A stretch of DNA of 64,000 nt, taken from assembly GCA_945883775.1 (NCBI GenBank), contig CAMCYG010000003.1, forward strand, positions 6,054-70,053. The letters are read 5' to 3'. The translations under genes and the position numbers were made by a program. Under the pieces are notes generated by a model. It was not told the origin of the DNA. It was given only the letters and a program-made list of their open reading frames with translations, and did no database searches. The DNA comes from Victivallis vadensis. GTDB taxonomy: Bacteria; Verrucomicrobiota; Kiritimatiellia; UBA8416; CAMCYG01. Positions 47,728 to 63,004 of this stretch are shown piece after piece. Positions within the stretch are counted from its first letter, which is position 1. Each line of letters opens with the position of its first letter.

Positions 47728-47744
47728 TGTGCGTCTCTCTTTAA

Positions 47745-47871: not shown

Positions 47872-49092
47872 CTATCTTTTCCCAAATCCCTCAATCACCA
47901 GACTCCCCAGCGTGCTGTAGAACTTTATCCTGTCTTCCGAATTAGCAAATGCAGAATCGGGCACGCCCTTTGAGTCCACAAATCCATCCTGCCCATTTAC
48001 CTTCTTAAACTGGTGAGCAGCAACAACACAGGCTCCCTCCCAGAAAATTGGCTTGAGCGATTCAGGCACACTAACGCCAGCCTTACAGGTCGGCTCGATC
48101 GGAATCTTGTCCAGCGTGTTATGCTCCGTCCCGGCTACGACGACTATCCCTGCTCCGCGCAGAGCCTTCACATATTTCTCCAGAACGGCAGGTTCATTCC
48201 GCATCGGAATTACTTCTGCCATATGGATATTCATCGTCTTGAGGCGCTTAACAAGCTCGTCCACCGGTTCCTCGAATTCGCAGAGCTTGGACGCACCGTC
48301 TGCCAGCGTCGGATAGCAGGGAATGCCGCCAAGTTCAAGTATCAGTGTAAATGCTTCTGCGAAGGACACAAACTCCTCTTTTATGAACGCAGGCCTTCCA
48401 GCCTTCATCATTCTGGAACGTATCTCGCCCTGGACCTGCACGGCATCGTCAGGCTTCTTCAGCTCCTCACCAAACACAGCGTTAAAAAGCTTCTGCCTCT
48501 GTGAGACATCAAGCCGTTCGAATATCACCTCCTGAAAGGCCTGAGCAAGATGCCGCTCCTGAAGCACAACATATTCAGCCCTGACATTGTGCCGTTTGAC
48601 GACCCGCCGAACGACTTCCTTGTCGGAAAGAGCAGGATCAAATCCGCCAGCATGAAAAATATGGTCTATCTTGGCAGCCATATCCATCATCCGTTTTGTA
48701 TCACTGCTCCTTATCAAATCCATATACTTCTGAGCTACAGGGGTGAGCTTCTCAAACATGGTAATTCCCTTGCCGCATATATAGATCCTGCCTGGATTGC
48801 CATGGTCGTTGATCCGCTTCCCGGATTTAATATATTCATCCAACAGCGCTATCACCTCGATACCATAAAGAGGGAATATGCCGACCTTGGCGGCAAGCTG
48901 GCTGAAATCAGCATAGACTTCATGATAGTAGTAATTACTCACGCCTACGGCGTTCATCTTCTCTGCAGCAGCCATCTTTACAGCTTCTTCGATGGTGTCG
49001 AATGCCGAGAAATTAGGCGGTAGATGGATATGAGAATTAGACCTGCCAACGGTCATTTGCCCACGGTTACTTTTAGCCTTCTCCGAGAGCAC
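47872..49092 (-). CDS. Conserved hypothetical metal-dependent hydrolase-like protein (HxH motif; PHP/amidohydrolase-like), function unknown
   Basis: ...GRSNSHIHLPPNFSAF...GTEHN... The start is uncertain: GTG at 49092 has AGGGGA upstream, ATGs lie at 49056 and 49131, and the 49170 ATG sits inside the palindrome. Confidence 0.55.
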   Translation of the reverse strand: MLSEKAKSNRGQMTVGRSNSHIHLPPNFSAFDTIEEAVKMAAAEKMNAVGVSNYYYHEVYADFSQLAAKVGIFPLYGIEVIALLDEYIKSGKRINDHGNPGRIYICGKGITMFEKLTPVAQKYMDLIRSSDTKRMMDMAAKIDHIFHAGGFDPALSDKEVVRRVVKRHNVRAEYVVLQERHLAQAFQEVIFERLDVSQRQKLFNAVFGEELKKPDDAVQVQGEIRSRMMKAGRPAFIKEEFVSFAEAFTLILELGGIPCYPTLADGASKLCEFEEPVDELVKRLKTMNIHMAEVIPMRNEPAVLEKYVKALRGAGIVVVAGTEHNTLDKIPIEPTCKAGVSVPESLKPIFWEGACVVAAHQFKKVNGQDGFVDSKGVPDSAFANSEDRIKFYSTLGSLVIEGFGKR

Positions 49093-49145
49093 CTGTATAT
49101 CCCCTGCGTTTTTTACAAGATCAATAATCATGACCGGCAGTATAT

Positions 49146-49176
49146 GTAAATTTGCGTGCATTGCACGCAAATTTAC
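49146..49176. promoter_or_regulatory. Perfect 15+1+15 bp palindrome, candidate operator in a divergent intergenic region
   Basis: GTAAATTTGCGTGCA t TGCACGCAAATTTAC, verified base by base. Lies 43-73 nt upstream of the ATG at 49219. Confidence 0.6.
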
Positions 49177-49218: not shown

Positions 49219-49431
49219 ATGGCATCGAAGAAACCACTAAAGAAGATGAGCATCAGGGAAGTAAAGTTCTTCAAGATCGCAAACCGAAAGGGATTCGCTA
49301 CCATTGCTAAAAACAACCTCACCGAAGGCCGCACTGTCTATCAGGCTTACAGCCGAATGGTAAAGGCCTGCAAACGTATGGGCTACGAACTGCCCCTGGC
49401 CGCAGGCGTTACGCTTCCTAAACCGAAATGA
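49219..49431 (+). CDS. Small (70 aa) highly basic hypothetical protein
   Basis: GGGAGGAG 5 nt before the ATG at 49219. MASKKPLKKMSIREVKFFKIANRKGF... has 17 K/R against 3 D/E. No family recognised. Confidence 0.5.
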   Translation: MASKKPLKKMSIREVKFFKIANRKGFATIAKNNLTEGRTVYQAYSRMVKACKRMGYELPLAAGVTLPKPK

Positions 49432-49523: not shown

Positions 49524-51206
49524 TTACTTCGCTTTCGCCAACAATTCAGCTTCTGCTTCCTGAGTCCAGAGACCGTCCTGCATCTTATCCACAACGGTCG
49601 GATAAACTGCAGCCAGCTTGCTCAGAGGGATCAGGCCCATCTCATGCAGTTCAGGATAGACAATGATCTTACCAGATAGCGTCCTGTTCTCCACCGCAAC
49701 AAGACCCTCTATCGCTCCAGCCATTCCGCAGACCGCATCCAATGAATAATTAGTGTCCAGCTTACCGCTTTCCAGCTTGCTCAACACTACCTTCATGTCG
49801 CGCAGAACTGACCCGCTGGTCCCGAACATGTAGGCCCGCTTTGCGATGACCGCATCAATATCCATCGAATGTATCGTCGGGGCCGGTATGCCCGCAAATA
49901 TATTGATCAGACTGTCCTGCGCGCAATCAGCAAGCGCTCCTGCCACAACTGCCGGAACTGGGGCCATCACAGCCACATAAGTGAACTTGTCCTGCAGTTT
50001 CTCTTTCTGCGTATTGACCATTGAGCATGCGACACCATTTTCTTCTGCAATAGGATCCACGATCCTCCGCAATGCAGCCAGCCTAGCATCGTCAAAATCA
50101 GTCCCTACAACCGATACGCCCTCTATGCCTGTGCAGACGTTCCTGATAACGTGCATCTGCCCCATAGGCCCGCCAGCGCCGATCACGAGACATTTGTCGT
50201 TCTTCCTCAGCTCAGTGGTAACTGGTATCATCGCATAACTCTCAGACGCATCATCTCCCGGCGTCCCTATCCAGCGAGTCATCCCGTAATGTATCCGGCC
50301 AATCCCTATCGCAACAGGCGCGCCGATCTTTCTGCCGCCGAGAACTATATTTATAATACCCTTCTCTGCCAGCTTTCCACTCAACTGCTCAATGACCGTC
50401 TTCTCACTGCCGAAATATATGATGTCATCATAAGAGACGTCCTTCAGGTCGGACACTGCCTGAACTTTTTCCACGTGCGCGCCAAGCTGGTCAACTGCCT
50501 GCTGCTGAGCAGCATCAGGGCACACAATAGTGACCGACGATTTCTTATGGCTCCGGCCCATTGCATCCTTGACCCCCTTGATCTGCCGTCCGGAATCCGC
50601 CACGATGGCCAATCGTCCGCCATCCTTTACCTGCCTGCGCTCCTCGTTGAGATACGAATTCTCAACACATGCCCATGGCTCGACAAGGCATATCGCCGAT
50701 GCGCTTTTTGTTTCGCTTACCGGGATCAAGAAGCGCTCACCAGTCAAATGATCCTGGGAAATCCGCTCATCTATGATTACATACTCTTCCAGGCCGCCGT
50801 CAAAATTATATCCGAATGCCGCATTACTTCCTGCCGCAGTCTTCAAGCCGCGATAATCGGTCTGAACTAGACAGCGCTCACCAACCTTATGCTGCTGGAC
50901 TTTATCACCCACCGCTACAATTCGAATCACCGTCTCATGTCCTGGTACTACAGGCCTGTCGCCAGGAACATACGAAGGGATCCCCGCAAGCATTTCAGCA
51001 TCAGCCCCCTGCACTATCTCGCTCTTTCTGGCGTGACTGGTGAATTGCTTAAGAAGCTTGAGATCCGAAAAACAAAGTCCGTTAGCCTCAATTTTGGCAA
51101 GTATCTGGAATCCCTTTGGCTCATCGACAGGCTTACTTTTGTTAAGCTCCAGCTTTCCAGGCCCGATCAACTGTACCGCATACTGCGTCTTAGGTATTTT
51201 ATTCAT
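49524..51206 (-). CDS. Atypical 560-aa MDR-superfamily dehydrogenase with an inserted extra domain
   Basis: N-terminal GroES-like domain with GLCFSD and PGHET zinc-ligand contexts. A ~150-aa insert precedes the GAGGPMG Rossmann motif at ~aa 345. Confidence 0.7.
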   Translation of the reverse strand: MNKIPKTQYAVQLIGPGKLELNKSKPVDEPKGFQILAKIEANGLCFSDLKLLKQFTSHARKSEIVQGADAEMLAGIPSYVPGDRPVVPGHETVIRIVAVGDKVQQHKVGERCLVQTDYRGLKTAAGSNAAFGYNFDGGLEEYVIIDERISQDHLTGERFLIPVSETKSASAICLVEPWACVENSYLNEERRQVKDGGRLAIVADSGRQIKGVKDAMGRSHKKSSVTIVCPDAAQQQAVDQLGAHVEKVQAVSDLKDVSYDDIIYFGSEKTVIEQLSGKLAEKGIINIVLGGRKIGAPVAIGIGRIHYGMTRWIGTPGDDASESYAMIPVTTELRKNDKCLVIGAGGPMGQMHVIRNVCTGIEGVSVVGTDFDDARLAALRRIVDPIAEENGVACSMVNTQKEKLQDKFTYVAVMAPVPAVVAGALADCAQDSLINIFAGIPAPTIHSMDIDAVIAKRAYMFGTSGSVLRDMKVVLSKLESGKLDTNYSLDAVCGMAGAIEGLVAVENRTLSGKIIVYPELHEMGLIPLSKLAAVYPTVVDKMQDGLWTQEAEAELLAKAK

Positions 51207-51216
51207 ATTTTTTCCT

Positions 51217-51300
51217 TATCATCTACCATCTGCATTTTGTAATCTGTGATCTATGTTCTGTAATCTGAGCTTTGTAATCTGTGATTTGTAATCTATTTGA
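51217..51300. repeat. Degenerate heptanucleotide tandem array (12 units in one phase)
   Basis: TATCATC TACCATC TGCATTT TGTAATC TGTGATC TATGTTC TGTAATC TGAGCTT TGTAATC TGTGATT TGTAATC TATTTGA. Fills most of the gap between the two dehydrogenase genes (51217 onward) and runs 8 nt into the SDR coding end. Confidence 0.85.
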
Positions 51301-52375
51301 GCATTACCTGGCCACCCGTAACGGGTATAGCCTGACCTGTCTCGTACTCCTGCTCCATGATGTAATAAATCGCCTTCATCACATCAGCCGTCCTGCAGCC
51401 CCTGCCCATTGGCACTTTCGCTTCATAAAACTTCTTCACATCTTCTACCGTTTTTGCGCCAGGGACTTTACCCGTTCTGAGATACTGAGCAAACAGCCCG
51501 TTTGCCGGATCCGACCACAACGGCCCGTCAAAGAAATTGCCAGGACATATGGAATTGACCTTGATTCCGTCCTCTATCAATTCCATCGCAAACGACTGGG
51601 TAAGCCCGATACCGCCAAACTTACTGCCGGCATACGCGCCGTTTCTGTTCGACCCCACAAGCCCGGATTTGCTGTTAATCTGGATAATGTCGCTGAGCCG
51701 GCCCGGTTTTGCCGCATGCTGCGCCGCCAATACAAGCGACGCCTTTTGAGCACACAGGAAATAGCCCTTGTAATTTACTGCGCCAACAAAATCAAAATCC
51801 TTCTCTGACTGCGACTTAACACTCTCCGCCTTCAAAACACCAGCGTTCGCGAGAAACAGATCGAATCCGCCAAAACGTTTGACTGTAGTCAAAACGGCAT
51901 CCGCAACTGAATTGCCGTCGGTTACATTGACCTTCACCGCCAGCGCCGTACCTTCTCCCTGCTTCTGGTTAATACCGGCAGCAGCTTTCTCAGCCAACTC
52001 GAAGTTCATATCGGCAAGCACGACCTTGCCGCCCTGATCAGCCAGATCCATCGCTATCTCGAGCCCGAATCCCTGGGCAGCACCTGTGACTATCGCCACT
52101 TTACCTGAAGCCCGACCCGGCTTTACAGTCTGCCGTGAAATAGCGAAACAGCCGATGTCCTTTACTGACACACTCTCAGGGACCTGTTTTAGTCCGCCAA
52201 CAAACGACTTCAGTAAAGCTATCAGCTCTTTCTGATCTGCGCCTTTCGGCTCAAACACGGCAACATCCTTACAGCTGCACTTCTCACTGAACTCAACCAC
52301 GGCAGGCACGTTCTTATCAGCATAATTCAGCCTCAGGAACGGTGCGATGGTACATATGATTTCTCTATTTTCCAT
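51293..52375 (-). CDS. Sorbitol-6-phosphate 2-dehydrogenase-like SDR (SrlD family) with ~95-aa N-terminal extension
   Basis: ATG at 52375, 5 nt after GGAGG. IQINSKSGLVGS..YAGSKFGGIGLTQS, KVPMGRGC and TGQAIPVTGGQVML closely parallel E. coli SrlD blocks. Confidence 0.8.
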   Translation of the reverse strand: MENREIICTIAPFLRLNYADKNVPAVVEFSEKCSCKDVAVFEPKGADQKELIALLKSFVGGLKQVPESVSVKDIGCFAISRQTVKPGRASGKVAIVTGAAQGFGLEIAMDLADQGGKVVLADMNFELAEKAAAGINQKQGEGTALAVKVNVTDGNSVADAVLTTVKRFGGFDLFLANAGVLKAESVKSQSEKDFDFVGAVNYKGYFLCAQKASLVLAAQHAAKPGRLSDIIQINSKSGLVGSNRNGAYAGSKFGGIGLTQSFAMELIEDGIKVNSICPGNFFDGPLWSDPANGLFAQYLRTGKVPGAKTVEDVKKFYEAKVPMGRGCRTADVMKAIYYIMEQEYETGQAIPVTGGQVMLK

Positions 52376-52392
52376 ATTTTCCTCCAAATCCA

Positions 52393-52466
52393 GCGCATGA
52401 CACTGCGCCGCTTCAACAAATCAATTCTCATTCTGAATTCTGACTACTGAATCCTGAATTCTTACC
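52393..52466. repeat. Degenerate REP hairpin plus heptanucleotide array
   Basis: CAGCGCATGACAC-TGCGCCGCTTCA is a decayed copy of CAGCGCATGACACATGCGCTGCTACAT at 53919. It is followed by TTCTCAT TCTGAAT TCTGACT ACTGAAT CCTGAAT TCTTACC. Confidence 0.75.
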
Positions 52467-53850
52467 TTTTTTTCTTCGGTGCCCCGTGAATACACTCACC
52501 ATGTACTGCGTGCGCCGCTTCCATCCAGGACTCCGCAAATGTTGGATGGCAATGGATCGTGTTCCCAAGTTCCTTTGCCGTCAATTCAGCCCTTATTGCC
52601 AAAGCCGCCTCGGTTATCAACTCGGTAGCATGTGCACCGACCGCCTGGGCACCAAGCAACTGATCGGTCTTTGCGTCGACAATCCATTTTACAAATCCAA
52701 CTGTCTCGCCAGCCGCCATCGCTTTGCCAAGCCCGACAAATGCGAATTTGCCTATCTTAATCTGAATACCCTTCTCCGTGGCCTTTGCCTCACTGAGACC
52801 GGCACATCCCACCTCCGGTGATGTAAATATGCATGACGGAACCATTGCTTCACAAGCTCTGCGTTTCGGTCCGATTGCGTTCTCGACTGCTACAACACCT
52901 TGCGAAGTTGCCGCATGCGCAAGCTGAGTGCTTCCTGCCGTAACGTCGCCTATAGCGTATATCCCAGCCACGCTGGTCTGACAATATTGATCAATCTCGA
53001 TATGCCCAGTCTTTGTGACAGCCAACCCGGCTTTCGCAAGATCCAGTCCATCCGTATACGGCTTACGTCCGATTGCGACAAGCAGCATTTCCGCGCTTAC
53101 TGTCTCGGCACCGACTTTGCCGCTGACGGTCTTGCCCTTGGATTCTATCTTCTCAAGCGGCTTACCGGTCATTACTTTTATACCAAGATTCGTCTCAAAG
53201 CTCTTGCGAATCTCGTGCCGCACATCAGCATCGAGCACCATCAATATATCTTCCAGCATTTCGACAATCGTCACCTTCACGCCAAGCTGTGCCGCCATGC
53301 AGGCAAACTCACAGCCGATAACCCCGCCACCCAGGACTATCATGCTTTCGGGCAGCTTGGTCAGCTCAAGGAATTTCCTGCTCTCGATGATATTTGCCGC
53401 TTTCGGGATGAACCCTGGAACGACGGACACAGCCCCGGCAGCTATGATCACCTTGCCGGCTTCAATAGCTTCCTTGCCATTGATCATGAGTTTGTTGCGG
53501 GAAACAAAAGAGGCTGTTCCCTCAAATACGGCAACACCGTTGGCCTTCAGAAGAGAGCCGACCCCCCCCTTAAGTTTCGCCACGACCTCGTCTTTGCGCT
53601 TTGCCATAGCCGAGTAGTCAAAGCTGTTCTTGCCAGGCACAATGCCCAGCGACTGGGAATGGGACATCTTATGATAAAGCTCTGATGAGGCGATCAACGT
53701 TTTTGTAGGAATACAACCCCAGTTCAGGCATGTTCCACCGAGCGCCTCTTTCTCCACCAAGGCAACCTTGGCGCCAAGTTGTGCCGCCCTTATCGCCGCA
53801 GGATATCCACCCGGTCCTCCACCTATAACAACAACATCAAACTTTTCCAT
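52462..53850 (-). CDS. lpd: Dihydrolipoyl dehydrogenase (E3)
   Basis: ATG at 53850 after AGGAGG. GGGPGGY FAD motif and redox disulfide GGTCLNWGCIPTK. Confidence 0.93.
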   Translation of the reverse strand: MEKFDVVVIGGGPGGYPAAIRAAQLGAKVALVEKEALGGTCLNWGCIPTKTLIASSELYHKMSHSQSLGIVPGKNSFDYSAMAKRKDEVVAKLKGGVGSLLKANGVAVFEGTASFVSRNKLMINGKEAIEAGKVIIAAGAVSVVPGFIPKAANIIESRKFLELTKLPESMIVLGGGVIGCEFACMAAQLGVKVTIVEMLEDILMVLDADVRHEIRKSFETNLGIKVMTGKPLEKIESKGKTVSGKVGAETVSAEMLLVAIGRKPYTDGLDLAKAGLAVTKTGHIEIDQYCQTSVAGIYAIGDVTAGSTQLAHAATSQGVVAVENAIGPKRRACEAMVPSCIFTSPEVGCAGLSEAKATEKGIQIKIGKFAFVGLGKAMAAGETVGFVKWIVDAKTDQLLGAQAVGAHATELITEAALAIRAELTAKELGNTIHCHPTFAESWMEAAHAVHGECIHGAPKKKR

Positions 53851-53887
53851 TTCAATTCCTCCTGTCTGTTTCCGCATATACTCATCA

Positions 53888-53945
53888 CTGCAGCTGAGCA
53901 TGCGTCATGCTCATTTTTCAGCGCATGACACATGCGCTGCTACAT
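53888..53945. repeat. Inverted pair of REP-like hairpins
   Basis: CTGCAGC-TGAGCATG-cgt-CATGCTCA tttttc AGCGCATG-aca-CATGCGCT-GCTACAT. Ends at the lipB stop codon. Confidence 0.85.
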
Positions 53946-54586
53946 CAAGAAACCAAATTATACCCGAACAATCTCACAAAATTATTAATCACCCGTTTTT
54001 TGACCTCGTTCATCTCCACATCTTCGACATGCAGATGCAGAGAGGTCACGCCCTTGTCCTTAATCCCGCATGGAATTATTCCACCATAATCCGAAAGCCT
54101 CACCCTGACATTCAGAGAGAACCCATGCATCGTTACATGACCTGCTATCTTGACCCCTATCGCGGCGATTTTGTCGTCACCGATCCACACGCCGCGATTC
54201 TGCCTGTCGCCGCGCGACTTGACACCATACTGCGCCAGCGTATCTACAATGATCTTCTCCAGCATATCCACGTACCAGACGACCTTGCGCGAATCGCTTC
54301 CCAGATCGATAATCGGGTAGCCTACCAGCTGGCCCGGCCCATGATATGTCACATCCCCACCGCGTGTGGTTTGAAAAACCTTTATCCCCTTTTTCTCCAG
54401 ATCCGCAGGCGCAAGCAGGAGATTCTCCTCCTTGGCACTCCTGCCCAGCGTATAGACCGGCTCATGCTCCAGCAGGAGGAGCGTGTCACCTATACTGCCA
54501 GCTTTTCGCTCCTTTACCATCGCCTCCTGAAGCGAAAGCGCCTGCTCATATGCCACTAACCCGAGGTCTTTGACGGTCAATATCAT
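53945..54586 (-). CDS. lipB: Octanoyltransferase (lipoyl(octanoyl) transferase)
   Basis: 213 aa with RGGDVTYHGPGQLVGYPI, AAIGVK and PCGI motifs. Confidence 0.9.
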   Translation of the reverse strand: MILTVKDLGLVAYEQALSLQEAMVKERKAGSIGDTLLLLEHEPVYTLGRSAKEENLLLAPADLEKKGIKVFQTTRGGDVTYHGPGQLVGYPIIDLGSDSRKVVWYVDMLEKIIVDTLAQYGVKSRGDRQNRGVWIGDDKIAAIGVKIAGHVTMHGFSLNVRVRLSDYGGIIPCGIKDKGVTSLHLHVEDVEMNEVKKRVINNFVRLFGYNLVS

Positions 54587-54592
54587 ACTGAA

Positions 54593-54627
54593 GAATCACA
54601 TATCACAGATCACAAACACAGATTTTG
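54593..54627. repeat. Degenerate heptanucleotide array abutting the lipB start
   Basis: GAATCAC ATATCAC AGATCAC AAACACA GATTTTG. Confidence 0.65.
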
Positions 54628-54666
54628 AACCATGCCGATAAACTAAATCCATAATTTCTTTTCTTA

Positions 54667-54732
54667 CTGTAGGAGTCGATCCCCTGATCGACGATTCTTT
54701 CCCATCGCCGATCAGGGGATCGGCTCCTACAG
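54667..54732. repeat. 66-nt near-perfect palindrome (CTGTAGGAG-headed REP pair)
   Basis: CTGTAGGAGTCGATCCCCTGATCGACGAT tctttccc ATCGCCGATCAGGGGATCGGCTCCTACAG. 29-bp stem with 2 mismatches; each arm also contains its own CGATC..GATCG hairpin. Confidence 0.85.
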
Positions 54733-54748
54733 AAGGAAGAAACGCCAG

Positions 54749-54784
54749 CGCTCCATCTTCTGGAGCGGAACGGCTACCCGTTCC
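54749..54784. repeat. Two adjacent hairpins downstream of the E2 gene
   Basis: CGCTCCA-tcttc-TGGAGCG and GGAACGG-ctac-CCGTTCC. Confidence 0.7.
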
Positions 54785-54810
54785 GTCGTAGCCTTCCCTC
54801 AAGTATTTAA

Positions 54811-56151
54811 TTACGCCAGACTCTTCCAGAGTCCGACATTCTCAAGCTTTTTCTTGATCGCGTTAACAAATGTTGCGCCAAGTGCGCCGTCCACAATCCT
54901 GTGGTCGCACGACAGCGAGATCTTCATCATGTTCCTGACACAGATCTTGCCATTCTTGACTACGGCCGTCTCCCTGGTGCTTGCCACCGCCAGGATAGCA
55001 CCCTCGCCAGGATTGATGATCGCATGGAACTCTTCCACATCCAGCATGCCCATATTGGAAACTGTGAACGAACTGCCGCTCATCTCATCAGGAAGAAGTT
55101 TACCTTCTCTTGCCCTCATGGCCATCGCCTTGGCAGTTTCGCTAAGCTCTTTCAGTGACATGTCCTGCGCATCTTTGATGCACGGCACGACCAGCCCTTC
55201 ATCAAGGCTGACCGCCAGTCCGAGATTCACTCCACTGCGCCACGACACACTCAAGCCGTCGGTAGTACTGTTGACTGCCGGGAATTCCTGCAAGGACATC
55301 ACGACTGCCTCAAGAATGAAGTCGGTAATTGTATATTTCTTACCTGCGTCTTTCAGTTCCTGCCTGAACACCATGAGATCGGTCATATCGACCGATACCG
55401 TCACATAGAAGTGCGGGATCATCATGAAGCTCTCTGTGAGGCGCTTTGCGATGATCTGTCTCATCTTGCTCATCTTCTTCGGTTTCTCGGCTATAGCGCG
55501 CTTGATGTCTTCAGTCCTGATCCTGCCGCCTTCGCCCAGGCCTTTGACTGTAAGTATGTCAATACCCTCGGCCTGAGCCATCTGCTTCGCAGTGGGCGTA
55601 ATCTTGAGATTCGCATAACCGCGTCCGTCCAGATAGGCTTTGACATCAGCCTCGACTATCCTGCCACCGGGTCCACTACCCTTGATGTTGACAGCGCTCA
55701 CTGCGCTGTTCTTCACCAGGACCTTGGCTCGCGGAGATATGAATAATCTCCCGGGCTGAGCAGCCACTGCCGGCTCGGCCGGCTTCGGCATCTGTACGGC
55801 AGGGACATCGGCTCGCGGCTGTGCCGGGGCAACTGATGCAGCAGCCGCAGTGGCTGCTGCCGGCGCGGGAGCCGCCGCCTTTGGCGGTGGCGGAGCATCA
55901 GGCGCCTTCTCTCCCTTATCACCTACATATCCCACAACGGTATTAACCGGAACAGTTACGTTCTCAGCTACCACAACCTTTATCAGAATCCCCTCAAAGA
56001 AACTTTCCACCTCAAGTACTGACTTGTCCGTCTCGATCTCGAACAGGATGTCACCCTTCTTAACGACATCCCCTTCCTTCTTGTGCCATTTGACAATCGA
56101 GGATTCCTCGACGGTCTGTCCGAACTTCGGCATTATTACTGCTTGTGCCAT
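54811..56151 (-). CDS. Dihydrolipoamide acyltransferase (E2) with one lipoyl domain and two peripheral-subunit-binding domains
   Basis: Lipoyl-Lys context EIETDKSV, Pro/Ala linker, two PSBD-like segments (ISPRAKVL...GSGPGGRI and ITPTAKQM...GLGEGGRI), and catalytic SCDHRIVDGA. Confidence 0.9.
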   Translation of the reverse strand: MAQAVIMPKFGQTVEESSIVKWHKKEGDVVKKGDILFEIETDKSVLEVESFFEGILIKVVVAENVTVPVNTVVGYVGDKGEKAPDAPPPPKAAAPAPAAATAAAASVAPAQPRADVPAVQMPKPAEPAVAAQPGRLFISPRAKVLVKNSAVSAVNIKGSGPGGRIVEADVKAYLDGRGYANLKITPTAKQMAQAEGIDILTVKGLGEGGRIRTEDIKRAIAEKPKKMSKMRQIIAKRLTESFMMIPHFYVTVSVDMTDLMVFRQELKDAGKKYTITDFILEAVVMSLQEFPAVNSTTDGLSVSWRSGVNLGLAVSLDEGLVVPCIKDAQDMSLKELSETAKAMAMRAREGKLLPDEMSGSSFTVSNMGMLDVEEFHAIINPGEGAILAVASTRETAVVKNGKICVRNMMKISLSCDHRIVDGALGATFVNAIKKKLENVGLWKSLA

Positions 56152-56175
56152 TGTTAGATCCTCCAGGCCTTCGAG

Positions 56176-58467
56176 TTACATTACCTTCAATGCGGTGTTC
56201 ATTATGTCTTTAGCGTTAGGCAGAAATGCCAGCTCAAGCGGCAGCGACTGCGGTGCGATACCGTTTTTCGCACCAAGCCTCAGCACAGGTGCGTCGAGAT
56301 AATCAAACGCCTGTTCCATTATCTGAGACGCAACCTCGCCGGTAAAACTACCCATGCTTATGCACTGGCTTACCACCACGCACTTGCCGGTCTTCTTGAT
56401 CGACTTGATGACAGTTTCCATGTCCAGCGGAACGATTGAGCGCAGGTCGATAACTTCCACACTGATCTTTTTCTCAGCCGCCAGCATTTCAGCCGCCTTG
56501 AGCGAATCATGGACTGACGGACCCCATGTGACAATCGTCAGGTCCTTGCCCTCTCTCTTCACATCAGCTACGCCTAGCGGAATCATGTAGTCGCCCTCAG
56601 GCACAACACCCTTGATCCCGTACAGAAGCTGAGACTCTACGAACATGATGGGGTTATTATCCCTTATGCATGTTGTGAGCAATCCCTTGGCATCAGCCGG
56701 GGTCGAAGGATATATGATATACATGCCCGGGAACCCGGCAAACATGCTCTCGATCGACTGCGAATGCTGTCCGCCATAGCCCTTACCGCCGCCGACTGAA
56801 GCACGTATCACCAGAGGCACCTCAGCCTTGGCGCCCGACATATAATGCCACTTGGCTGCCTGATTTGCGATCTGGTCCGACGCCATCAGCGCGAAGTCCA
56901 TATACATCAGCTCGACAATAGGACGAAGCCCCGTCATCGCCGCTCCGACCGCGGTTCCGCAGATGCATGCCTCCGATATCGGAGAATTGAACACGCGATC
57001 CCTTCCGAATGCTTCAAGCAGGTCCTTGGTTACCTTGAACGCTCCGCCGTAATCGGCAACATCTTCTCCGTAGAATATTACCCTGTTATCACGGATCATT
57101 TCCTGAACAAGTGTTTCCTTAATGGCATCTTTATAAGTAAGCTGTCCATCCTTACGCTTGATCTCAGGCACAGGCTTGATAATCTTGACCTTGCTATACT
57201 TCTCCGGAACAACATCGCATGCCGTGTTAGTATTAGTGTACCTGATAACATCCGCCGCTACCGGATCGGCTGATGCCGCGGCTGCAGCGGCGGCCCTTGC
57301 GTTCCTATCGACAACCCGCTTCTTCAATTCTTCAAGCGTCTTCTTGTTCAGCACGCCTGCGTCAAGAATCTGCTTTTCATAAGCATCGATAGCATCCACA
57401 CACCGCCACTGCGACTCTTCTTCCTTCGTCCTGTACTCATTACGAGGATCGCTAAGCGAATGTCCGTAATATCTGTAAGTATCAAACTCGAGCAGGTATG
57501 GTCCGTCGCCCTTGCGGCAGCCTTCGGATGCGCGCTTGAACGCATCACGCACAGCCATCACGTCCATACCGTTGATTACTTCAGCATGCATCATGTTCTC
57601 CGCAAAACCTGCGGCGCGCTTTGCAAGACACTCGACCCCGCTGACCTCATCATCAACCCTGCCGGTCATGCCATAGTGGTTGTTGATAATAGCGAATATT
57701 ATCGGAAGCCCACCCTTCTTATCCTTCGAAAGATAGTTGCTGAACTGACCCATTGCAGCCCAATTCAAAGACTCAAGGACTACGCCGTTAGCATAGGCGC
57801 CATCACCTGCGAAGCAGCAGGTGACCTTGCCATCCTGCAGATAGCGCGAAGTCATTGCCGCACCTGTGGCAATCGGCACGCCGCCACCGACGATAGCGTT
57901 AGCACCGAGGTGACCGACAGTGAAGTCGGCAATGTGCATTCCACCCCCGCGCCCTTTGCAGTAGCCATCTTCCTTGCCGAACAATTCAGCGCATGTCCTG
58001 TAGATATGATCTTCCAGCGCCGCTTCGACAAGCACCTTGATGTCCTTGGAATTGCAGTTCGGCACCCGCTTCTGGAGCCTCTCAACGCTCATGGCCCTGA
58101 TGGCAACACAGCCCTTGGCTATGCTGTCGCCATGGCCGCGGTGAGTGGATGTGATCTGGTCATCGGCCTTCATGCCGATACAGGCTCCAACAGAAGTGGC
58201 TTCCTGGCCGACCGAAAGATGCGTCGGGCCGCGATATTCGAAATTCTTTACCGACTCGTAAGCGCCGGACCTTATCTTAACAATCATCTCCTCGGCCTCG
58301 CGGATCATAAGCATGTCTTCAAGAATATCAACTGCCTCCTGCTTGGTTATTGTTCCGGCCTTCACCTCGTCTTTCAGTGTCTTGTCATACGCGAATTCTT
58401 TGATCGTCCCGAACTTGACGACCTTCGACTTGAACTCCGGCTTCCTGTTGCTCAGGTAATTTGGCAT
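56176..58467 (-). CDS. Fused E1 alpha-beta thiamine-diphosphate dehydrogenase component (acetoin/pyruvate dehydrogenase type)
   Basis: 763 aa. Alpha part has STHRGHGD, CKGRGGGMHIAD and GDGAYANG...NN (TPP motif). An Ala-rich linker joins a transketolase-like beta part. Confidence 0.88.
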   Translation of the reverse strand: MPNYLSNRKPEFKSKVVKFGTIKEFAYDKTLKDEVKAGTITKQEAVDILEDMLMIREAEEMIVKIRSGAYESVKNFEYRGPTHLSVGQEATSVGACIGMKADDQITSTHRGHGDSIAKGCVAIRAMSVERLQKRVPNCNSKDIKVLVEAALEDHIYRTCAELFGKEDGYCKGRGGGMHIADFTVGHLGANAIVGGGVPIATGAAMTSRYLQDGKVTCCFAGDGAYANGVVLESLNWAAMGQFSNYLSKDKKGGLPIIFAIINNHYGMTGRVDDEVSGVECLAKRAAGFAENMMHAEVINGMDVMAVRDAFKRASEGCRKGDGPYLLEFDTYRYYGHSLSDPRNEYRTKEEESQWRCVDAIDAYEKQILDAGVLNKKTLEELKKRVVDRNARAAAAAAASADPVAADVIRYTNTNTACDVVPEKYSKVKIIKPVPEIKRKDGQLTYKDAIKETLVQEMIRDNRVIFYGEDVADYGGAFKVTKDLLEAFGRDRVFNSPISEACICGTAVGAAMTGLRPIVELMYMDFALMASDQIANQAAKWHYMSGAKAEVPLVIRASVGGGKGYGGQHSQSIESMFAGFPGMYIIYPSTPADAKGLLTTCIRDNNPIMFVESQLLYGIKGVVPEGDYMIPLGVADVKREGKDLTIVTWGPSVHDSLKAAEMLAAEKKISVEVIDLRSIVPLDMETVIKSIKKTGKCVVVSQCISMGSFTGEVASQIMEQAFDYLDAPVLRLGAKNGIAPQSLPLELAFLPNAKDIMNTALKVM

Positions 58468-58488
58468 ATCATCCGTCCTTTCTTTATT

Positions 58489-59262
58489 CTAATACAAAAC
58501 TTCGACATTCTTCTTTTTCATTTCTTTTACAAATTCAGGGCTGACGCCCTGATCTGTCACTATCACATCGACATCATTCACCGTACCGAACTTGGCGAAC
58601 GATGCAAAACCAACCTTTGAGCTGTCAACCAGAAGAACGACCCTGGCGGCACGGCCTATAACGGCTTCTTTTGTATGCGCCTCAGCAGGATCGGTAGTTG
58701 TCAGCTCATCCCCCACCAGGCCGCTGGTACCCATGAAGGCTATATCGAAATTAACATGATTGATTATATGATCGGTAAGCGAGCCGACGAATGTCTGGCT
58801 GATCTTCCGGAACTCTCCGCCGGTTAGGATCACGCGCGGCCCGTTCTCGGCATACAAATTCGCCACATGCAGGGAATTAGTGACGATAGTCAGCCTGTTA
58901 TGGCTGCCAAGCAGTTTGGCAAAGGCGAAAAGCGTGCTTCCGCCATCTATATAAATGGACGACGATGATTTCACGAAAGACAGTGCTAGCTCGGCTATCT
59001 TCTGTTTCTGTTTGGCAGCCTTGGCGGTCTTGTCATCAAAGCCTGGCTCATCGAAATTGGTGTCAACCGCCATGGCACCGCCATGAACCCTGCGGACCAT
59101 TCCCTTTTCATCAAGCTCAGCCAGATCACGGCGTATTGTTGCAGGCGAAACAGAGAGTTCATTACAGAGCTTTTCGACACTGATAAAGCCGCTCTGCTTG
59201 AGGATTTCCCTAATCTTCTTTTGCCTTTCCACCGCAAGACCCGTGTTTAGCTCTATGCTCAT
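58489..59262 (-). CDS. DeoR-family transcriptional regulator
   Basis: 257 aa; N-terminal HTH (...LSVSPATIRRDLAELDEKG) and a DeoR C-terminal sugar-phosphate sensor domain. Confidence 0.88.
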   Translation of the reverse strand: MSIELNTGLAVERQKKIREILKQSGFISVEKLCNELSVSPATIRRDLAELDEKGMVRRVHGGAMAVDTNFDEPGFDDKTAKAAKQKQKIAELALSFVKSSSSIYIDGGSTLFAFAKLLGSHNRLTIVTNSLHVANLYAENGPRVILTGGEFRKISQTFVGSLTDHIINHVNFDIAFMGTSGLVGDELTTTDPAEAHTKEAVIGRAARVVLLVDSSKVGFASFAKFGTVNDVDVIVTDQGVSPEFVKEMKKKNVEVLY

Positions 59263-59353
59263 ATGTGATTACTTATGATTAGATACAATCAGATGTAATC
59301 ATAATGAATCACACAAGACAAGAAGAATTTTGCGTATTTTTTCATGGATTTCT

Positions 59354-59388
59354 TGTCGGACTAGTCTGACATGTCGGACCGGTCTGAC
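59354..59388. promoter_or_regulatory. Tandem pair of 17-nt near-palindromic boxes (candidate operator or structural repeat)
   Basis: TGTCGGACTAGTCTGAC a TGTCGGACCGGTCTGAC, between the GHMP-kinase stop and the deoR-family start. Confidence 0.4.
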
Positions 59389-59394
59389 TGGCTA

Positions 59395-60633
59395 TCAGCA
59401 GCCAGGCAATACTTTCACGCCATCGACGACCTTGCAGACGTGGACTGCGTATTTGTCGGCAAATGCGGGCCTGCTCCTGGGATACGCACTATTAACGGCT
59501 TCCCTCACAGCTTTTACCGAATTAGCAGCAACGATGGCACCGGCTGCTCCTTTGTCGCCGCCGCCGAGCATACGCTCACCGTATACGCCTGGCACGGTCC
59601 TGACTATATCGCACATTGTCTCAAGTTCCGGGCCGGAGATTTTGTATTCATCGCGAAGGCCGACACCATCTGCACGGAATATGGAACCTACCTTCTCTAT
59701 TTTGCCGGCTTTCCAGGCTTCCATCATCTCATAAAACCGCTTCTGGGCCTTAAATATGTAAGTCAGCCTGTCGCAAAGATCAGGCTGACGCCGCTGAAAC
59801 CTGTCAATTATCGACTTGTACTGCTTATCGGTCTTAACATCGGCAAGGCATTTTATCCCAAACTCGGCTCCGGCCAGTTCCGCCATCTTCTCGCACTCTG
59901 CCCTGCGGACTTTGTAGGATGATTTTTCAAGACCAGGGCGGACTGTTCCGGTGTCAAGGCTTACGATCCTGAAATCGGACGCACCCTTGCCAAGAGAGAC
60001 ATACTTTATTGTACGCTTCGAAGGGCTGTAATGTGTACCCATCCCAGCCTTTGCAAAATATATCATTATCTGGTCGAGTTTGCCGCAGGGCGATCCCACA
60101 TAATCATTCTCCACTGCCTGAGACATGTCGACAATTTTCATGCCGTCCTTGATACTGATGCCATTTACTTCAAGCGTGGTCAGCATTAGATTTATGCAAA
60201 GCGAAGCCGAGCGCGACATTCCGCCGCCGGGTATATTACCAATCAGGACTGCGTCAAAACCTCTGGTCAATTTGTATCCAGCCTTCCTGAGCACATAATC
60301 CACTCCATAGGCATAGCGCGCCCAGGTATCTGCAATCGCGGCTGATTTAGGGGCTGGCGTCTGACCGGACTTGAATTCGATCACACCATCGGACTCGAAG
60401 TTGCCAGAGAAGAGACGGATCTTGCCAAGCGCATTGGGTTTATATGCCAGCCAGATGAATCTATCGGTACCAACGCCGAACAGTTCGGTTCCGTTATAAT
60501 CGCCATGCTCAACGCCCAGACAGAAACGTGACGAAGTCCTGCGCATCTTCCCGCCTTTGATGTCCAACTTGGCTGTCTTCGCAAGTCTGATTATTTCCTT
60601 ACGCGCACTGGCATCATCAACTATTTTATTCAT
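59395..60633 (-). CDS. GHMP-family sugar kinase, galactokinase-like
   Basis: ATG at 60633 after AAGGAG. GVEHGDYNG (GalK signature-like), PGGGMSRSAS (GHMP motif II) and GGGDKGA. Confidence 0.8.
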   Translation of the reverse strand: MNKIVDDASARKEIIRLAKTAKLDIKGGKMRRTSSRFCLGVEHGDYNGTELFGVGTDRFIWLAYKPNALGKIRLFSGNFESDGVIEFKSGQTPAPKSAAIADTWARYAYGVDYVLRKAGYKLTRGFDAVLIGNIPGGGMSRSASLCINLMLTTLEVNGISIKDGMKIVDMSQAVENDYVGSPCGKLDQIMIYFAKAGMGTHYSPSKRTIKYVSLGKGASDFRIVSLDTGTVRPGLEKSSYKVRRAECEKMAELAGAEFGIKCLADVKTDKQYKSIIDRFQRRQPDLCDRLTYIFKAQKRFYEMMEAWKAGKIEKVGSIFRADGVGLRDEYKISGPELETMCDIVRTVPGVYGERMLGGGDKGAAGAIVAANSVKAVREAVNSAYPRSRPAFADKYAVHVCKVVDGVKVLPGC

Positions 60634-60659
60634 ATCGGCTCCTTCGTATCTGCTCATTC

Positions 60660-60683
60660 GGCGCGGTAAGCCGCGCCGCTTCG
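60660..60683. repeat. REP-like hairpin, variant tail
   Basis: GGCGCGG-taag-CCGCGCC-GCTTCGA. Confidence 0.65.
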
Positions 60684-60704
60684 AACAGGAAATTATATTC
60701 CTCG

Positions 60705-60776
60705 CTGTAGCTGCGCATGTGTCATGCGCAGGTCTTCAGTCTTCTCCGCCGGCGCTTGACACAAGCGCCGCTACAT
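60705..60776. repeat. Inverted pair of GTAG-headed REP-like hairpins
   Basis: CTGTAGC-TGCGCATG-tgt-CATGCGCA ...19 nt... GGCGCTTG-aca-CAAGCGCC-GCTACAT. Confidence 0.85.
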
Positions 60777-60793
60777 AAGCAAAGATCGTTTCC

Positions 60794-61018
60794 TTACTTC
60801 GCCTTGCCATCTCCTGCCGCTTTCTTCGCTATATTCGCGGAAATCAGCATGAAAAGGCCGAAGACGACAAGCACAACACCCCACACCATATTAATATTGA
60901 TATTTAGCGAATGCTGGTACATATCGGCGTTGGCTTTCGTGAAGAAACCGTAACCGCACAACAAAACGCCCAGCAGGCTGAACATCATCCCTATCGGTAA
61001 TCTTATATCTAGTCCCAT
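60794..61018 (-). CDS. Small two-TM membrane protein co-transcribed with the SSS transporter
   Basis: 74 aa, two hydrophobic helices. AAGGAG RBS; starts 15 nt after the transporter stop. Confidence 0.6.
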   Translation of the reverse strand: MGLDIRLPIGMMFSLLGVLLCGYGFFTKANADMYQHSLNININMVWGVVLVVFGLFMLISANIAKKAAGDGKAK

Positions 61019-61033
61019 GATTATCTCCTTTGT

Positions 61034-63004
61034 TTACCAGAATATTATATTGATGATAACACAGATTATGATCAGTATCGTTCCTGCAACTGCAGGCCGG
61101 AATATCCATGCAGAATCGTCTTCAATCTGCTTGGGCGTAAGCGAATAAACCAGCCCTGTCAACTCCTTATCAGTCTTGGCCTGCTTGGTCATCAGAGAGA
61201 TGACAACGGTCAGAACAAGGCAGACGCTGAAGGCAAATATGGCAAGCCAGAAGTTCTGCGCCATCTCACTCGGGAATGTGTGCAGTATGCTCATGTAACC
61301 GCCCTTGACGCCCGGTGCATTTGTCCCGGCAATGGTCAACGCATGGAATATTCCAGATGTCAGCGTACCACAAAGAAGTCCGTAAAATGCGCCACTGGCA
61401 GTAGCGCGCTTCCAGAACATACCCATGATGAATGTCGCGAACAGCGGGGCATTGACGAACCCGAACACCAGCTGGATAATGTCCATAGCGTTATTGTACA
61501 GTGCCGCAAAATATGCACAGCCGATACTCACGATAATGCCGACAACCGTGGCCGCCCTGCCCATCCACATATAATGATCGTCGCTCTTCTCTGCCATTTT
61601 CATCCAGCGACGGAATGCCTGATACAGGTCGTAGGTCCAAATGGTATTGAACGCCGTTACATTGCCGGCCATACCGGACATGAAAGAGGCCAGCAAGGCA
61701 GTCAGTGCCAGACCGAGCAGACCGGCGGGGCAATAACGCGTAACCAATGAGACGATCACGCCGCTATAGTCATTCTCGGCACTGCAGCGTATACCATCAG
61801 CCAGATCGAGGTCGGTCTTGGCGGGATTATTCTTCGCCACAGTCATAAGAACACCGACTTTTGCAGGACTCAGAGTCTCTTTGACAGCGTCACTTAACTT
61901 CTTGGCGGCAGCCTTGCTGTCGAGATTTGCGGCAATTGCCTCTTTCAACACAGGAACAGCTTCCTGACAGACTGTCAGCTCAATCGCCTTACGTGGCAGA
62001 TGATAGCTTGCTTTATTGATATCGCCTGAGCCCGCCGAAGCCAGTCCTACGGCAATCATACCGGGCAGAATGACCAGGAGAGGAATGAGCATCTTTGGAA
62101 TGGCACCGACGAGCGGGGTGCGTCGCGCCGCAGCCATGTTCTTGGCAGCCATCGCCCTCTGCACCACCAGGAAGTTGGTGCACCAGTAGCCGAACGCCAA
62201 CACAAAGCCCAAGCCAAACACCATTCCGAACCAGTCAACGCCCATTGCATTCTGGTCGACACCCTTGAACATCACATCCCAGGTGCTTGTCCAGGCATTG
62301 GGAGCATAGGCATTCTCGCCCAAGCCAAGCGCCTGAGGCGCTGTCGCCACCCCGGTCAGCGTCTCCTTGAGCTTCGTCCAGCCGCCGACATCCTTGAGTC
62401 CGAGCCAAACCACCGGCGCGAAACCCAGCACTATCATAAAGAACTGCAGGACTTCAGTATAGATAGCAGAGGTCAAACCGCCCTTGAGCACATAAACAAG
62501 CACAACGCCTGAGCATATCCAGAGGCTGATATGGTAGTTCCACCCGAGAATCGAATGAAGAAGCTTAGCCAGCTCATTCATTGAGATGCCGGAAGCAAAG
62601 ACCGTCATCACAGCAAAAGTGATGGAATTAAGACAGCGCACCCTGCCGTCGAAACGCATATTCAGGTATTCAGGCACTGAACGCGCCTTTGATCCATAAT
62701 AGAACGGCATCATGAATACTGCAAGGAAGACCATGGCAAGGATCGCACCGATCCAATAGAAGTGACATGTCATCATTCCGTACTTCGCACCGCTGGCCGC
62801 CATACCGACAAGCTCAAGCGCGCCAAGATTGGCAGAGATGAACGCAATACCGGTTACCCACGTCGGGATCGAGTGACCGGAAATCAGGAAGTCCGAACTG
62901 GTCTTCATATAACGCTTGAGAACCCAGCCGATTCCTAGGACGAACATAACATAGATAGCCATTATCGAGTAATCGATAACACCCATTTGAATCAGAGACG
63001 ACAT
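61034..63004 (-). CDS. Sodium:solute symporter (SSS/SGLT-like) with ~95-aa hydrophilic insertion
   Basis: 656 aa; N-terminal half is SGLT-like (...FLISGHSIPTWVTGIAFISANLGALE...). AAGGAG RBS. Confidence 0.85.
   Translation of the reverse strand: MSSLIQMGVIDYSIMAIYVMFVLGIGWVLKRYMKTSSDFLISGHSIPTWVTGIAFISANLGALELVGMAASGAKYGMMTCHFYWIGAILAMVFLAVFMMPFYYGSKARSVPEYLNMRFDGRVRCLNSITFAVMTVFASGISMNELAKLLHSILGWNYHISLWICSGVVLVYVLKGGLTSAIYTEVLQFFMIVLGFAPVVWLGLKDVGGWTKLKETLTGVATAPQALGLGENAYAPNAWTSTWDVMFKGVDQNAMGVDWFGMVFGLGFVLAFGYWCTNFLVVQRAMAAKNMAAARRTPLVGAIPKMLIPLLVILPGMIAVGLASAGSGDINKASYHLPRKAIELTVCQEAVPVLKEAIAANLDSKAAAKKLSDAVKETLSPAKVGVLMTVAKNNPAKTDLDLADGIRCSAENDYSGVIVSLVTRYCPAGLLGLALTALLASFMSGMAGNVTAFNTIWTYDLYQAFRRWMKMAEKSDDHYMWMGRAATVVGIIVSIGCAYFAALYNNAMDIIQLVFGFVNAPLFATFIMGMFWKRATASGAFYGLLCGTLTSGIFHALTIAGTNAPGVKGGYMSILHTFPSEMAQNFWLAIFAFSVCLVLTVVISLMTKQAKTDKELTGLVYSLTPKQIEDDSAWIFRPAVAGTILIIICVIINIIFW

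Follow-up and report, generated by a model that had tools for sequence, protein, structure and literature searches.

A gene cluster encoding a DeoR-family regulator, a lipoyl complex of the pyruvate dehydrogenase (PDH)/acetoin dehydrogenase type and several companion enzymes was analyzed in a 64,000-nt stretch of Victivallis vadensis DNA (assembly GCA_945883775.1, contig CAMCYG010000003.1, positions 6,054 to 70,053; hereafter, the window). A preliminary description, made from the sequence alone, had called ten genes between 49524 and 63004 and treated them as a single catabolic island. All ten were present on the (-) strand where they had been placed, each domain assignment was confirmed by Pfam and NCBIfam, and the public gene calls for the contig (ENA metagenome ERZ27280308, k141_1524644) agreed with the open reading frame (ORF) analysis. 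The gene set is real, but it consists of two units, the borders of the island had been misplaced, and the conserved part extends further downstream. The first unit (63004-59395), comprising a symporter, a small transmembrane (TM) protein and a kinase, is an independent module. The second unit (59312-46693), which includes an operator-like array and runs from deoR through a zinc-dependent alcohol dehydrogenase (Zn-ADH) gene, is most likely a DeoR-controlled operon set. Since deoR has its own conserved operator-like array, the lipoyl-complex operon begins at deoR. The genes are co-directional as described, but this carries little weight because nearly every long ORF in the window lies on the (-) strand; the GC skew was negative over the whole 64 kb.

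The comparison covered 165 loci (numbered with the prefix L) around E1 or the 560-aa medium-chain dehydrogenase (MDR560), including 80 E1-anchored genome loci and 80 MDR560-anchored metagenome loci. The E1-anchored loci were read by tblastn of the window proteins, and partners were counted over loci with enough sequence.

Regulator, lipoyl complex and companion enzymes

The regulator gene (58489-59262, - strand, as are all genes below unless otherwise given) encodes an N-terminal HTH_DeoR domain (74.7 bits) and a C-terminal DeoRC sugar-phosphate sensor domain (163.3 bits), and the protein reached no NCBIfam equivalog above its cut-off. The 133-bp gap between the kinase gene and deoR contains an operator-like array (59263-59312; GTGATT-n4-ATGATT-n5-TGATT-n6-AATCAT-n4-AATCAC), which ends at the deoR start codon. 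Five TGATT/AATCA sites were found versus 0.16 expected, and this was the sole place in the window with at least four sites per 60 bp. The same architecture was located upstream of deoR in L051, L056, L043, L002, L050, L021, L017, L006, L003, L001 and L009. With this domain order and a repeated array near its own start, the protein is probably an autoregulated repressor of the operon. A scan for promoter and terminator consensus sequences gave counts no different from the shuffled expectation.

The fused E1αβ (763 aa; 56176-58467) was matched by Pfam E1_dh, Transket_pyr and Transketolase_C and carries GYCKGRGGGMHIADF. Its beta part passed the NCBIfam PDH E1-beta subfamily model NF006667 (365 vs 321 bits), and its nearest PDB relatives were the E1β of Geobacillus stearothermophilus and human E1α. 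The genome collection held 523 relatives, the best of which (74% identity) came from uncultured Victivallales and Kiritimatiellae. A second fused-E1 lineage (823-826 aa, 36-45% identical) was found with the same gene set in Planctomycetota, Sumerlaeota and a 2.5-Mb contig, and both lineages have an insertion of 40-60 aa after HRGHGxxIAKG that is missing from split E1α/β. The loop YRYYGHSLSDP was present, and the catalytic loop was common to all E1s aligned. Because the fused E1 was about equidistant (42-45% identity) from the rhizobial E1s, the 'Aco' E1 of Clostridioides difficile and the 'PdhA' E1 of Priestia, and because the catalytic loop does not distinguish them, a substrate call from the E1 sequence was dropped.

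E2 (54811-56151) comprises one lipoyl domain with the motif ETDKS, an E3_binding domain and a catalytic domain with DHRIVDG. E3 (52462-53901 as an ORF; 52462-53850, 462 aa, in the public gene call) passed TIGR01350 (511 vs 409 bits) and carries the redox motif GGTCLNWGCIP. In their sequences, E1β, E2 and E3 are PDH-like. LipB (53945-54586) passed TIGR00214 and NF010925. The claim of a dedicated lipB within the cluster held, as lipB, or lipB with lipA, recurs in L083 and L153, where both genes adjoin MDR560, and in rhizobial plasmids. The intergenic region between E2 and lipB (54587-54810) is strongly structured, with a predicted RNA fold of -104 kcal/mol (z = -9.2) containing a near-perfect stem of ~30 bp (arms 54669-54694 and 54705-54730) that has no second copy in the window. 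The hairpin could be a processing site, a stabiliser or a terminator; an Rfam scan returned a spurious sub-threshold miRNA match and nothing else. As E3 directly follows E2 in relatives, lipB and the hairpin look like a lineage-specific insertion.

Split E1α/E1β/E2/LpdA sets, ~42-45% identical to the window E1, were found on Rhizobium/Sinorhizobium plasmids (L167, L168), in C. difficile (L169) and on a Priestia plasmid (L170). The rhizobial sets are surrounded by a PfkB kinase, a sugar ABC transporter, a SorC regulator and LpdA, with LipA or a class II fructose-bisphosphate aldolase, and the Priestia set adjoins a glucitol-type phosphotransferase system with GutM; a 441-aa oxidoreductase also occurs among the neighbors of these split E1 clusters. 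This distribution suggests that sugar-linked Aco/PDH-like lipoyl complexes form a wider uncharacterised class. The closest split E1α/β, at ~44% identity, are those on the plasmids of Rhizobium/Sinorhizobium and Priestia, genera expected to have a housekeeping PDH.

The short-chain dehydrogenase (SDR) gene (51293-52387, also delimited as 51293-52375) encodes a 364-aa form with an N-terminal extension of ~95 aa. Its labeling as SrlD-like was justified insofar as sorbitol-6-phosphate dehydrogenase was the best NCBIfam match, although at 240 bits it lies below the cut-off of 307. In most relatives the SDR forms the C-terminal half of an Aldolase_II-SDR fusion 620-730 aa long, and the window SDR was 63-77% identical to the SDR domain of such fusions in L069, L073, L081 and L085. 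The fusions matched the RhaEW model TIGR02632 over their full length with 334 bits, under the cut-off of 568, and the residues matching FucA Glu73, His92, His94 and His155 were kept in the fused aldolase domains of 25/25 sequences. Pfam detected no Aldolase_II domain in the window SDR, which is thus not itself a RhaEW fusion but retains a remnant of ~95 aa whose weak, collinear alignment (11 bits) falls on positions 245-277 and 340-360 of the fusion profile, the inter-domain part. By its sequence, the window protein is the SDR half of a RhaEW-like aldolase/SDR fusion from which the aldolase core was lost. The 364-aa form was also present in seven other loci (L103, L104, L109, L128, L131, L152 and L153).

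MDR560 (49524-51206) is a Zn-type medium-chain dehydrogenase (MDR) with an insert, in which Pfam detected the GroES-like domain ADH_N alone. In a family of more than 4000 members, the catalytic-zinc ligands Cys45 and His90-Glu91 and the GxGxxG motif GAGGPMG were invariant in 36 sequences. The AlphaFold2 model (pLDDT 89) showed an ordinary MDR core with an inserted domain of ~130 aa; Foldseek matched the MDR core over about half of the query, and its top matches (TM 0.78) included butanediol, threonine and carbonyl reductases.

The conserved part continues into a gene (47872-49161) whose product showed a weak Pfam PHP match and belongs to a family of more than 2600 members, every one annotated 'hypothetical'. 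Its invariant residues N41, H43, H45, E101, H190, H203, E315, H346 and H382 comprise an HxH motif and further ligands, and its AlphaFold2 model (pLDDT 91) has a helical insertion in the PHP fold. A PDB sequence search found nothing; the fold search alone gave matches, the top ones being the pAp phosphatase Cv1693 (2yb1), BAD_1165 and RNase AM. Against 2yb1, 3e0f and 9etk, the Foldseek probability was 1.0 with target TM of 0.72-0.75. On this model, the protein is a predicted metal-dependent phosphoesterase of the PHP family. A perfect palindrome with 14-nt arms (TAAATTTGCGTGCA-ATG-CACGCAAATTTA; 49147-49176) is centred on the start codon of this gene. Folded as RNA, it gives a hairpin of -24.8 kcal/mol (z = -4.7), and it may act as an operator or as a hairpin affecting translation. 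MDR560 and the PHP-like gene are separated by 362 bp, in which a small basic ORF of 70 aa is present on the (+) strand (49219-49431); the public record also calls it. The last gene of the unit (46693-47829) encodes the Zn-ADH, a classical Zn-dependent alcohol/polyol dehydrogenase of 378 aa (Pfam ADH_N, ADH_zinc_N). Orthologues follow MDR560 in L120 (53% identity, adjoining RhaA) and L116, and a Zn-ADH takes the equivalent position in Chloroflexi loci; it is probably an accessory member of the cluster.

Conservation across phyla and the fucose/rhamnose context

The preliminary description had proposed a check of whether the neighborhood of the E1, the SDR and the 560-aa MDR is conserved in related genomes. 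The linkage was kept in at least five phyla despite rearranged order and orientation, the set of DeoR, E1αβ, E2, E3, PHP-like protein, (aldolase-)SDR and MDR560 recurring in Kiritimatiellia, Verrucomicrobiota, Planctomycetota, Sumerlaeota and Chloroflexota. Chance juxtaposition of a housekeeping PDH, the case that would have undone the proposal, is contradicted by this conservation. In the E1-anchored genome loci, the core of DeoR-E1αβ-E2-E3 was represented by DeoR, adjacent to E1αβ, in 48/67, E2 in 46/63 and E3 in 32/52. In 21 of the 24 informative metagenome loci, E1αβ lay within 10 kb of MDR560. MDR560-anchored loci with enough upstream sequence contained SDR (53/57), PHP-like protein (40/44), E2 (26/32), E3 (26/38) and DeoR (21/27). 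MDR560, SDR, PHP-like protein and Zn-ADH were found with E1 in Verrucomicrobiia (L051, L056), L066, L069 and three Chloroflexota loci.

In the canonical metagenome arrangement, E1αβ and DeoR share a strand, and the opposite strand carries E2, E3, PHP-like protein, (Aldolase_II-)SDR and MDR560. Frequent extras were a mannitol-1-P-dehydrogenase-like gene, a second MDR of ~425 aa, a KpsF/GutQ-type sugar-phosphate isomerase (8 loci) and lipB-lipA. The ~425-aa MDR, which follows MDR560 in Planctomycetota, was 53% identical to the MDR behind E1αβ-E2-E3 in a Verrucomicrobiota lineage; a minimal unit of E1αβ-E2-E3-MDR (~430 aa) was found in at least eight Verrucomicrobiota loci, and in L037, L047, L053, L060, L063 and L064 it directly follows dnaK-groES-groEL. 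Clusters c9, c16 and c6 upstream of the Verrucomicrobia E1αβ, taken as candidates for a transporter, a small protein and a kinase, were actually DnaK, GroES and GroEL, and the 'conserved' 862-aa and similar ORF clusters c5, c10 and c11 were antisense ORF artefacts in high-GC loci. A TauE/SafE sulfite-exporter-like gene lies close by in some of the dnaK-groES-groEL-linked loci (annotated in L037). In L083 (Sumerlaeota), an APH-family kinase with an MtnK-like fold (6455-7483; no NCBIfam match) stands between deoR and the fused E1, and is a second, unrelated kinase type recruited beside the complex.

The proposal that the lipoyl complex is tied to a sugar pathway with 6-deoxy-ketose phosphate intermediates gained support from the genomic context. 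Fucose/rhamnose genes were detected in nine related loci (L002, L021, L066, L069, L073, L120, L131, L138 and L159). L131 reads E2-E3-PHP-SDR-MDR560-GH29 α-L-fucosidase-FGGY kinase-FucI-MFS-FucU, and its FGGY kinase scored 483 bits on the rhamnulokinase model. L159 reads SBP-RhaM-RhaA-like-RhaB-PHP-AldSDR-MDR560 (SBP, solute-binding protein; AldSDR, aldolase-SDR fusion), followed by a SorC regulator and E2-E3-E1αβ. When probed with the Fuc and Rha proteins of E. coli, L002, which holds the closest E1αβ relative (74%), showed DeoR-E1αβ-E2-E3-aldolase-RhaA (61% to E. coli), with a kinase further along, and L138 has kinase-RhaA-E1αβ-DeoR on one side and E2-E3-AldSDR-MDR560 on the other. RhaA, FucI/FucP/FucU or RhaM/RhaD-like genes occur in L069, L021, L066, L120 and L073. 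When the E1-anchored loci were restricted to those of 12 kb or more, deoxyhexose genes were present in 11/51 and a module gene in 18/51.

L-Fucose and L-rhamnose catabolism both end in dihydroxyacetone phosphate (DHAP) and L-lactaldehyde. Since the two routes meet there, the module most probably serves their common lower part. These sugars are the methyl-pentose constituents of sulfated polysaccharides that resist degradation, such as fucoidans and mucins, and the specialist degraders of such polymers are bacteria of the Planctomycetes-Verrucomicrobia-Chlamydiae (PVC) group and Planctomycetes. Strains of Kiritimatiellales (Pontiella) ferment fucose and rhamnose, with fucK unidentified in both strains and aldA in strain F1 (PMC7356697). 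The present cluster would supply the lower pathway that is missing in these cultured fermenters.

Outside the second unit, the symporter of the SSF family (656 aa; 61034-63004), the small TM protein (74 aa; 60794-61018) and the GHMP/GalK-like kinase (59395-60657; 420 aa as an ORF, 412 aa in the public gene call) had been assigned to one pathway with the lipoyl complex. This assignment failed, as the symporter and the kinase never co-occurred with the complex in the 165 loci; homologues of the three proteins were found in 0/165 loci around E1 or MDR560, and they were rejected as pathway members. The kinase lies beside an SSF transporter in three unrelated genomes, with otherwise unrelated neighbors and never near E1 or DeoR; one of these genomes adds an aldose epimerase and a small DUF3185-like membrane protein. 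Its family shows 68-73% identity across Verrucomicrobia, Phycisphaerae and Planctomycetes. The protein fell below every galactokinase cut-off (best 178 vs 385 bits, NCBIfam), and Pfam detected GHMP_kinases_N alone. A direct repeat, GTCAGACCGGTCCGAC / GTCAGACTAGTCCGAC (~59352-59392), lies just 3' of the kinase stop codon, upstream of the deoR array. Downstream of the second unit, the regions 36130-37401 and 31618-44950 contain a weakly LarA (lactate racemase N-domain)-like ORF, UxaC, 6-phosphogluconate dehydrogenase, phosphofructokinase, GFO/IDH/MocA, a xylose-isomerase-like TIM barrel and an SDR. In L150, a gene at a distance of 2.6 kb from MDR560 shares 60% identity with this TIM barrel, and the SDR was 47% identical to an SDR near the module in L155-L158.

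Proposed pathway and alternative explanations

We tentatively propose, with a little less than even confidence, that the second unit is the lower branch of 6-deoxyhexose (L-fucose/L-rhamnose) catabolism, leading from lactaldehyde through lactate and pyruvate to acetyl-CoA. From the gene content and the context, we infer the following substrates. An isomerase, a rhamnulo- or fuculokinase and a class II aldolase, encoded elsewhere in the genome and adjoining in relatives, would generate DHAP and L-lactaldehyde. The RhaW-like SDR would oxidize lactaldehyde to L-lactate, and a Zn-MDR (MDR560 or its paralogue) would bring the CH3-CHOH- carbon to the 2-oxo level. The complex of fused E1, E2 and E3 would then act on a C3 2-oxo compound, most simply converting pyruvate to acetyl-CoA and NADH. 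DeoR would bind the TGATT array and presumably be released by a ketose-1-phosphate. The net result would be a cytosolic disposal of toxic lactaldehyde without a microcompartment.

Several observations weigh against this proposal. No fucose/rhamnose genes were detected in the 64-kb window with the E. coli Fuc/Rha probes, and the window locus is without an aldolase domain. We know of no MDR that oxidizes lactate, so that the MDR step is a guess. A route from lactaldehyde through lactate to pyruvate is free of phosphate and leaves the near-universal PHP phosphoesterase without a function, and three NAD-linked oxidations per C3 unit would be awkward for the strict fermenters among the carriers. 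In many close relatives, DeoR-E1αβ-E2-E3 stands amid unrelated flanks, in one lineage after dnaK-groES-groEL, and such loci are no less compatible with a general PDH than with a specialised PDH. Finally, the E1 alpha part fell under the TIGR03182 cut-off (251 vs 394 bits), the best NCBIfam match of E2, the PDH acetyltransferase, was below its cut-off (344 vs 445), and both fused-E1 lineages carry a 12-aa insertion within the ThDP (thiamine diphosphate) motif GDG...NN, giving 38 residues vs 26. Together with the relatives in plasmid sugar clusters, these failures and insertions argue for a non-pyruvate substrate.

It is possible, though we would not put it as high as an even chance, that the complex is no pyruvate dehydrogenase but a ThDP- and lipoate-dependent enzyme turning a non-2-oxoacid product of the deoxy sugar into an acyl-CoA. 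The substrate may be L-lactaldehyde, a methyl ketone derived from it, or a 5-keto/1-deoxy ketose phosphate. A non-pyruvate substrate would extend the known chemistry of 2-oxoacid-dehydrogenase-type complexes, and the non-2-oxoacid reading would imply a widespread cytosolic fucose/rhamnose pathway, with MDR560 and the PHP-like protein, replacing the aldehyde-dehydrogenase and microcompartment routes. In the current view, the toxic intermediate lactaldehyde is dealt with in microcompartments or by AldA and FucO.

The first of these substrates leads to an alternative that we regard as unlikely, in which the complex acts on L-lactaldehyde itself, either oxidizing it to lactyl-CoA or cleaving it in the acetoin manner to formyl-CoA and acetaldehyde, and the MDRs recycle NADH, for example by reducing acetaldehyde to ethanol or lactaldehyde to 1,2-propanediol. 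Such a step was predicted for an acetoin-dehydrogenase-like complex under a DeoR-family regulator in a genome without aldA and fucO (PMC8579813). It would suit the minimal E1αβ-E2-E3-MDR unit of Verrucomicrobiota, the lack of a lactate dehydrogenase in the cluster, the family-specific E1 insertions and the occurrence of the closest split homologues in the plasmid sugar-type clusters of Rhizobium/Sinorhizobium and Priestia. However, most clusters encode a RhaW-like SDR, homologues of which already make lactate from lactaldehyde (PMC3870299), and the conserved neighbors do not include a phosphotransacylase, a kinase or a gene for handling formyl-CoA. This alternative, too, gives the PHP enzyme no function, and to our knowledge no E1 of this class uses an aldehyde productively.

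The preliminary description had envisaged an acetoin-style cleavage of a deoxy-ketose phosphate. In a refined form, which we consider improbable, the SDR and MDR560 would reduce L-fuculose-1-P or L-rhamnulose-1-P at C2 and oxidize it at C5 to an α-hydroxy methyl ketone of the 1-deoxy-hexulose-6-phosphate type, which E1 would cleave to acetyl-CoA and a tetrose-4-phosphate. C4, the future aldehyde carbon, is the sole position at which the two sugars differ, so that one common product would arise. The domain order of the fused E1 is that of DXS and transketolase, the MDR core is similar to that of butanediol and threonine dehydrogenases, enzymes that oxidize CH3-CHOH-CHX- groups, and the companion families include polyol-phosphate dehydrogenases (SrlD, IMG 'sorbose-1-P reductase', mannitol-1-P dehydrogenase-like). 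A phosphoesterase and, in the eight loci noted above, a KpsF/GutQ isomerase would find a place in such a route. No aldolase domain is present in the clusters of the window and of the seven loci sharing the 364-aa SDR, and the fucose locus among them, L131, shows no aldolase in view; RhaEW in vitro needed NAD+ even for DHAP release (PMC3870299). On the other hand, the class II aldolase fused to the SDR appears catalytically intact by its residues in most clusters, and L002 has a stand-alone aldolase adjoining RhaA. The cleavage is less economical because most relatives carry the intact fused aldolase, which would give DHAP and lactaldehyde. Stereochemical reasoning predicts the tetrose to be D-threose-4-P or L-erythrose-4-P, neither of which is a usual metabolic intermediate, and we know of no reaction of this kind.

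It is also improbable that the cluster holds a general pyruvate dehydrogenase with a lipoylation gene, DeoR sensing glycolytic sugar phosphates and the neighbors being loosely connected or unrelated: the sequences are PDH-like, many loci consist of DeoR-E1αβ-E2-E3 alone among the unrelated or dnaK-groESL flanks mentioned above, and nearly all window genes share one strand, but the order E2-E3-PHP-(Ald)SDR-MDR560, on a single strand and closely spaced, recurs in dozens of loci of several phyla, spans two E1αβ lineages that are only 36-45% identical and is repeatedly embedded in fucose/rhamnose loci, and neither chance nor loose linkage would persist in a conserved order despite such divergence.

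Comparison with known systems

A literature search for a described pathway with this gene set returned a single bioinformatic prediction, for Caldicellulosiruptor bescii (PMC8579813), and the earlier statement that no such pathway had been described was nearly right. C. bescii lacks aldA and fucO, and an acetoin-dehydrogenase-like three-subunit enzyme in the regulon of the DeoR-type RhaR2 was predicted for its lactaldehyde step. Likened by description, its Athe_0702-4 (Rodionov et al. 2021) and the present cluster share E1/E2 of the Aco/PDH type, a DeoR-family regulator and an association with rhamnose genes, and both are proposed for the lactaldehyde step where aldA/fucO are missing. The regulator and the complex are present in the window, whereas the fucose/rhamnose genes adjoin them in relatives. 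C. bescii is a Firmicute with split E1α and E1β, whereas the E1 described here is fused and has its own insertions. Also unlike C. bescii, the present set includes a conserved PHP phosphoesterase, the 560-aa MDR and a RhaEW-like (aldolase-)SDR, and is distributed over PVC bacteria, Planctomycetota, Sumerlaeota and Chloroflexota.

In vitro, RhaEW (YuxG) of Chloroflexus and Bacillus forms DHAP and L-lactate from rhamnulose-1-P, and in many cases RhaR belongs to the DeoR family (Rodionova et al. 2013, PMC3870299). The relatives of the window cluster resemble this system in the full Aldolase_II-SDR fusion with its metal and acid-base residues, and, in several loci, in a DeoR-family regulator with RhaA, RhaB and RhaM adjoining the fusion. 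They differ in that the fusions score below the equivalog cut-off and the window copy has lost the aldolase core. Unlike the present cluster, the characterised rha operons have no lipoyl complex, PHP enzyme or MDR560.

The AcoABCL system with butanediol dehydrogenase likewise places an E1αβ/E2/E3 complex beside an MDR and an SDR able to generate its carbonyl substrate, and the aco operon of Pelobacter carbinolicus holds the lipoate-biosynthesis gene acoS. However, no sigma-54 AcoR-type gene was present in the window or the annotated related loci, the regulator being of the DeoR family instead, and the genomic context is that of deoxyhexose rather than butanediol. The C. difficile locus 'acoRABCL' is likewise co-transcribed with a regulator gene of the DeoR type, and acetoin fails to sustain growth there (bioRxiv 10.1101/2023.07.28.551048).

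The handling of lactaldehyde by PVC bacteria has otherwise been attributed to microcompartments (PV-BMC; PMC8857213). The PV-BMC occurs in the same phyla, serves the same sugars and disposes of toxic L-lactaldehyde with acyl-CoA formation. It relies on shell proteins together with a CoA-acylating aldehyde dehydrogenase and a phosphotransacylase; all of these are missing here, and the present route would be cytosolic and dependent on ThDP and lipoate. In summary, a complex of the PDH/acetoin-dehydrogenase type was most likely recruited into deoxy-sugar catabolism, a role foreshadowed only by the C. bescii-type prediction in one Firmicute genus, and the cluster ties this complex to two large unannotated families, MDR560 and the PHP-like protein.

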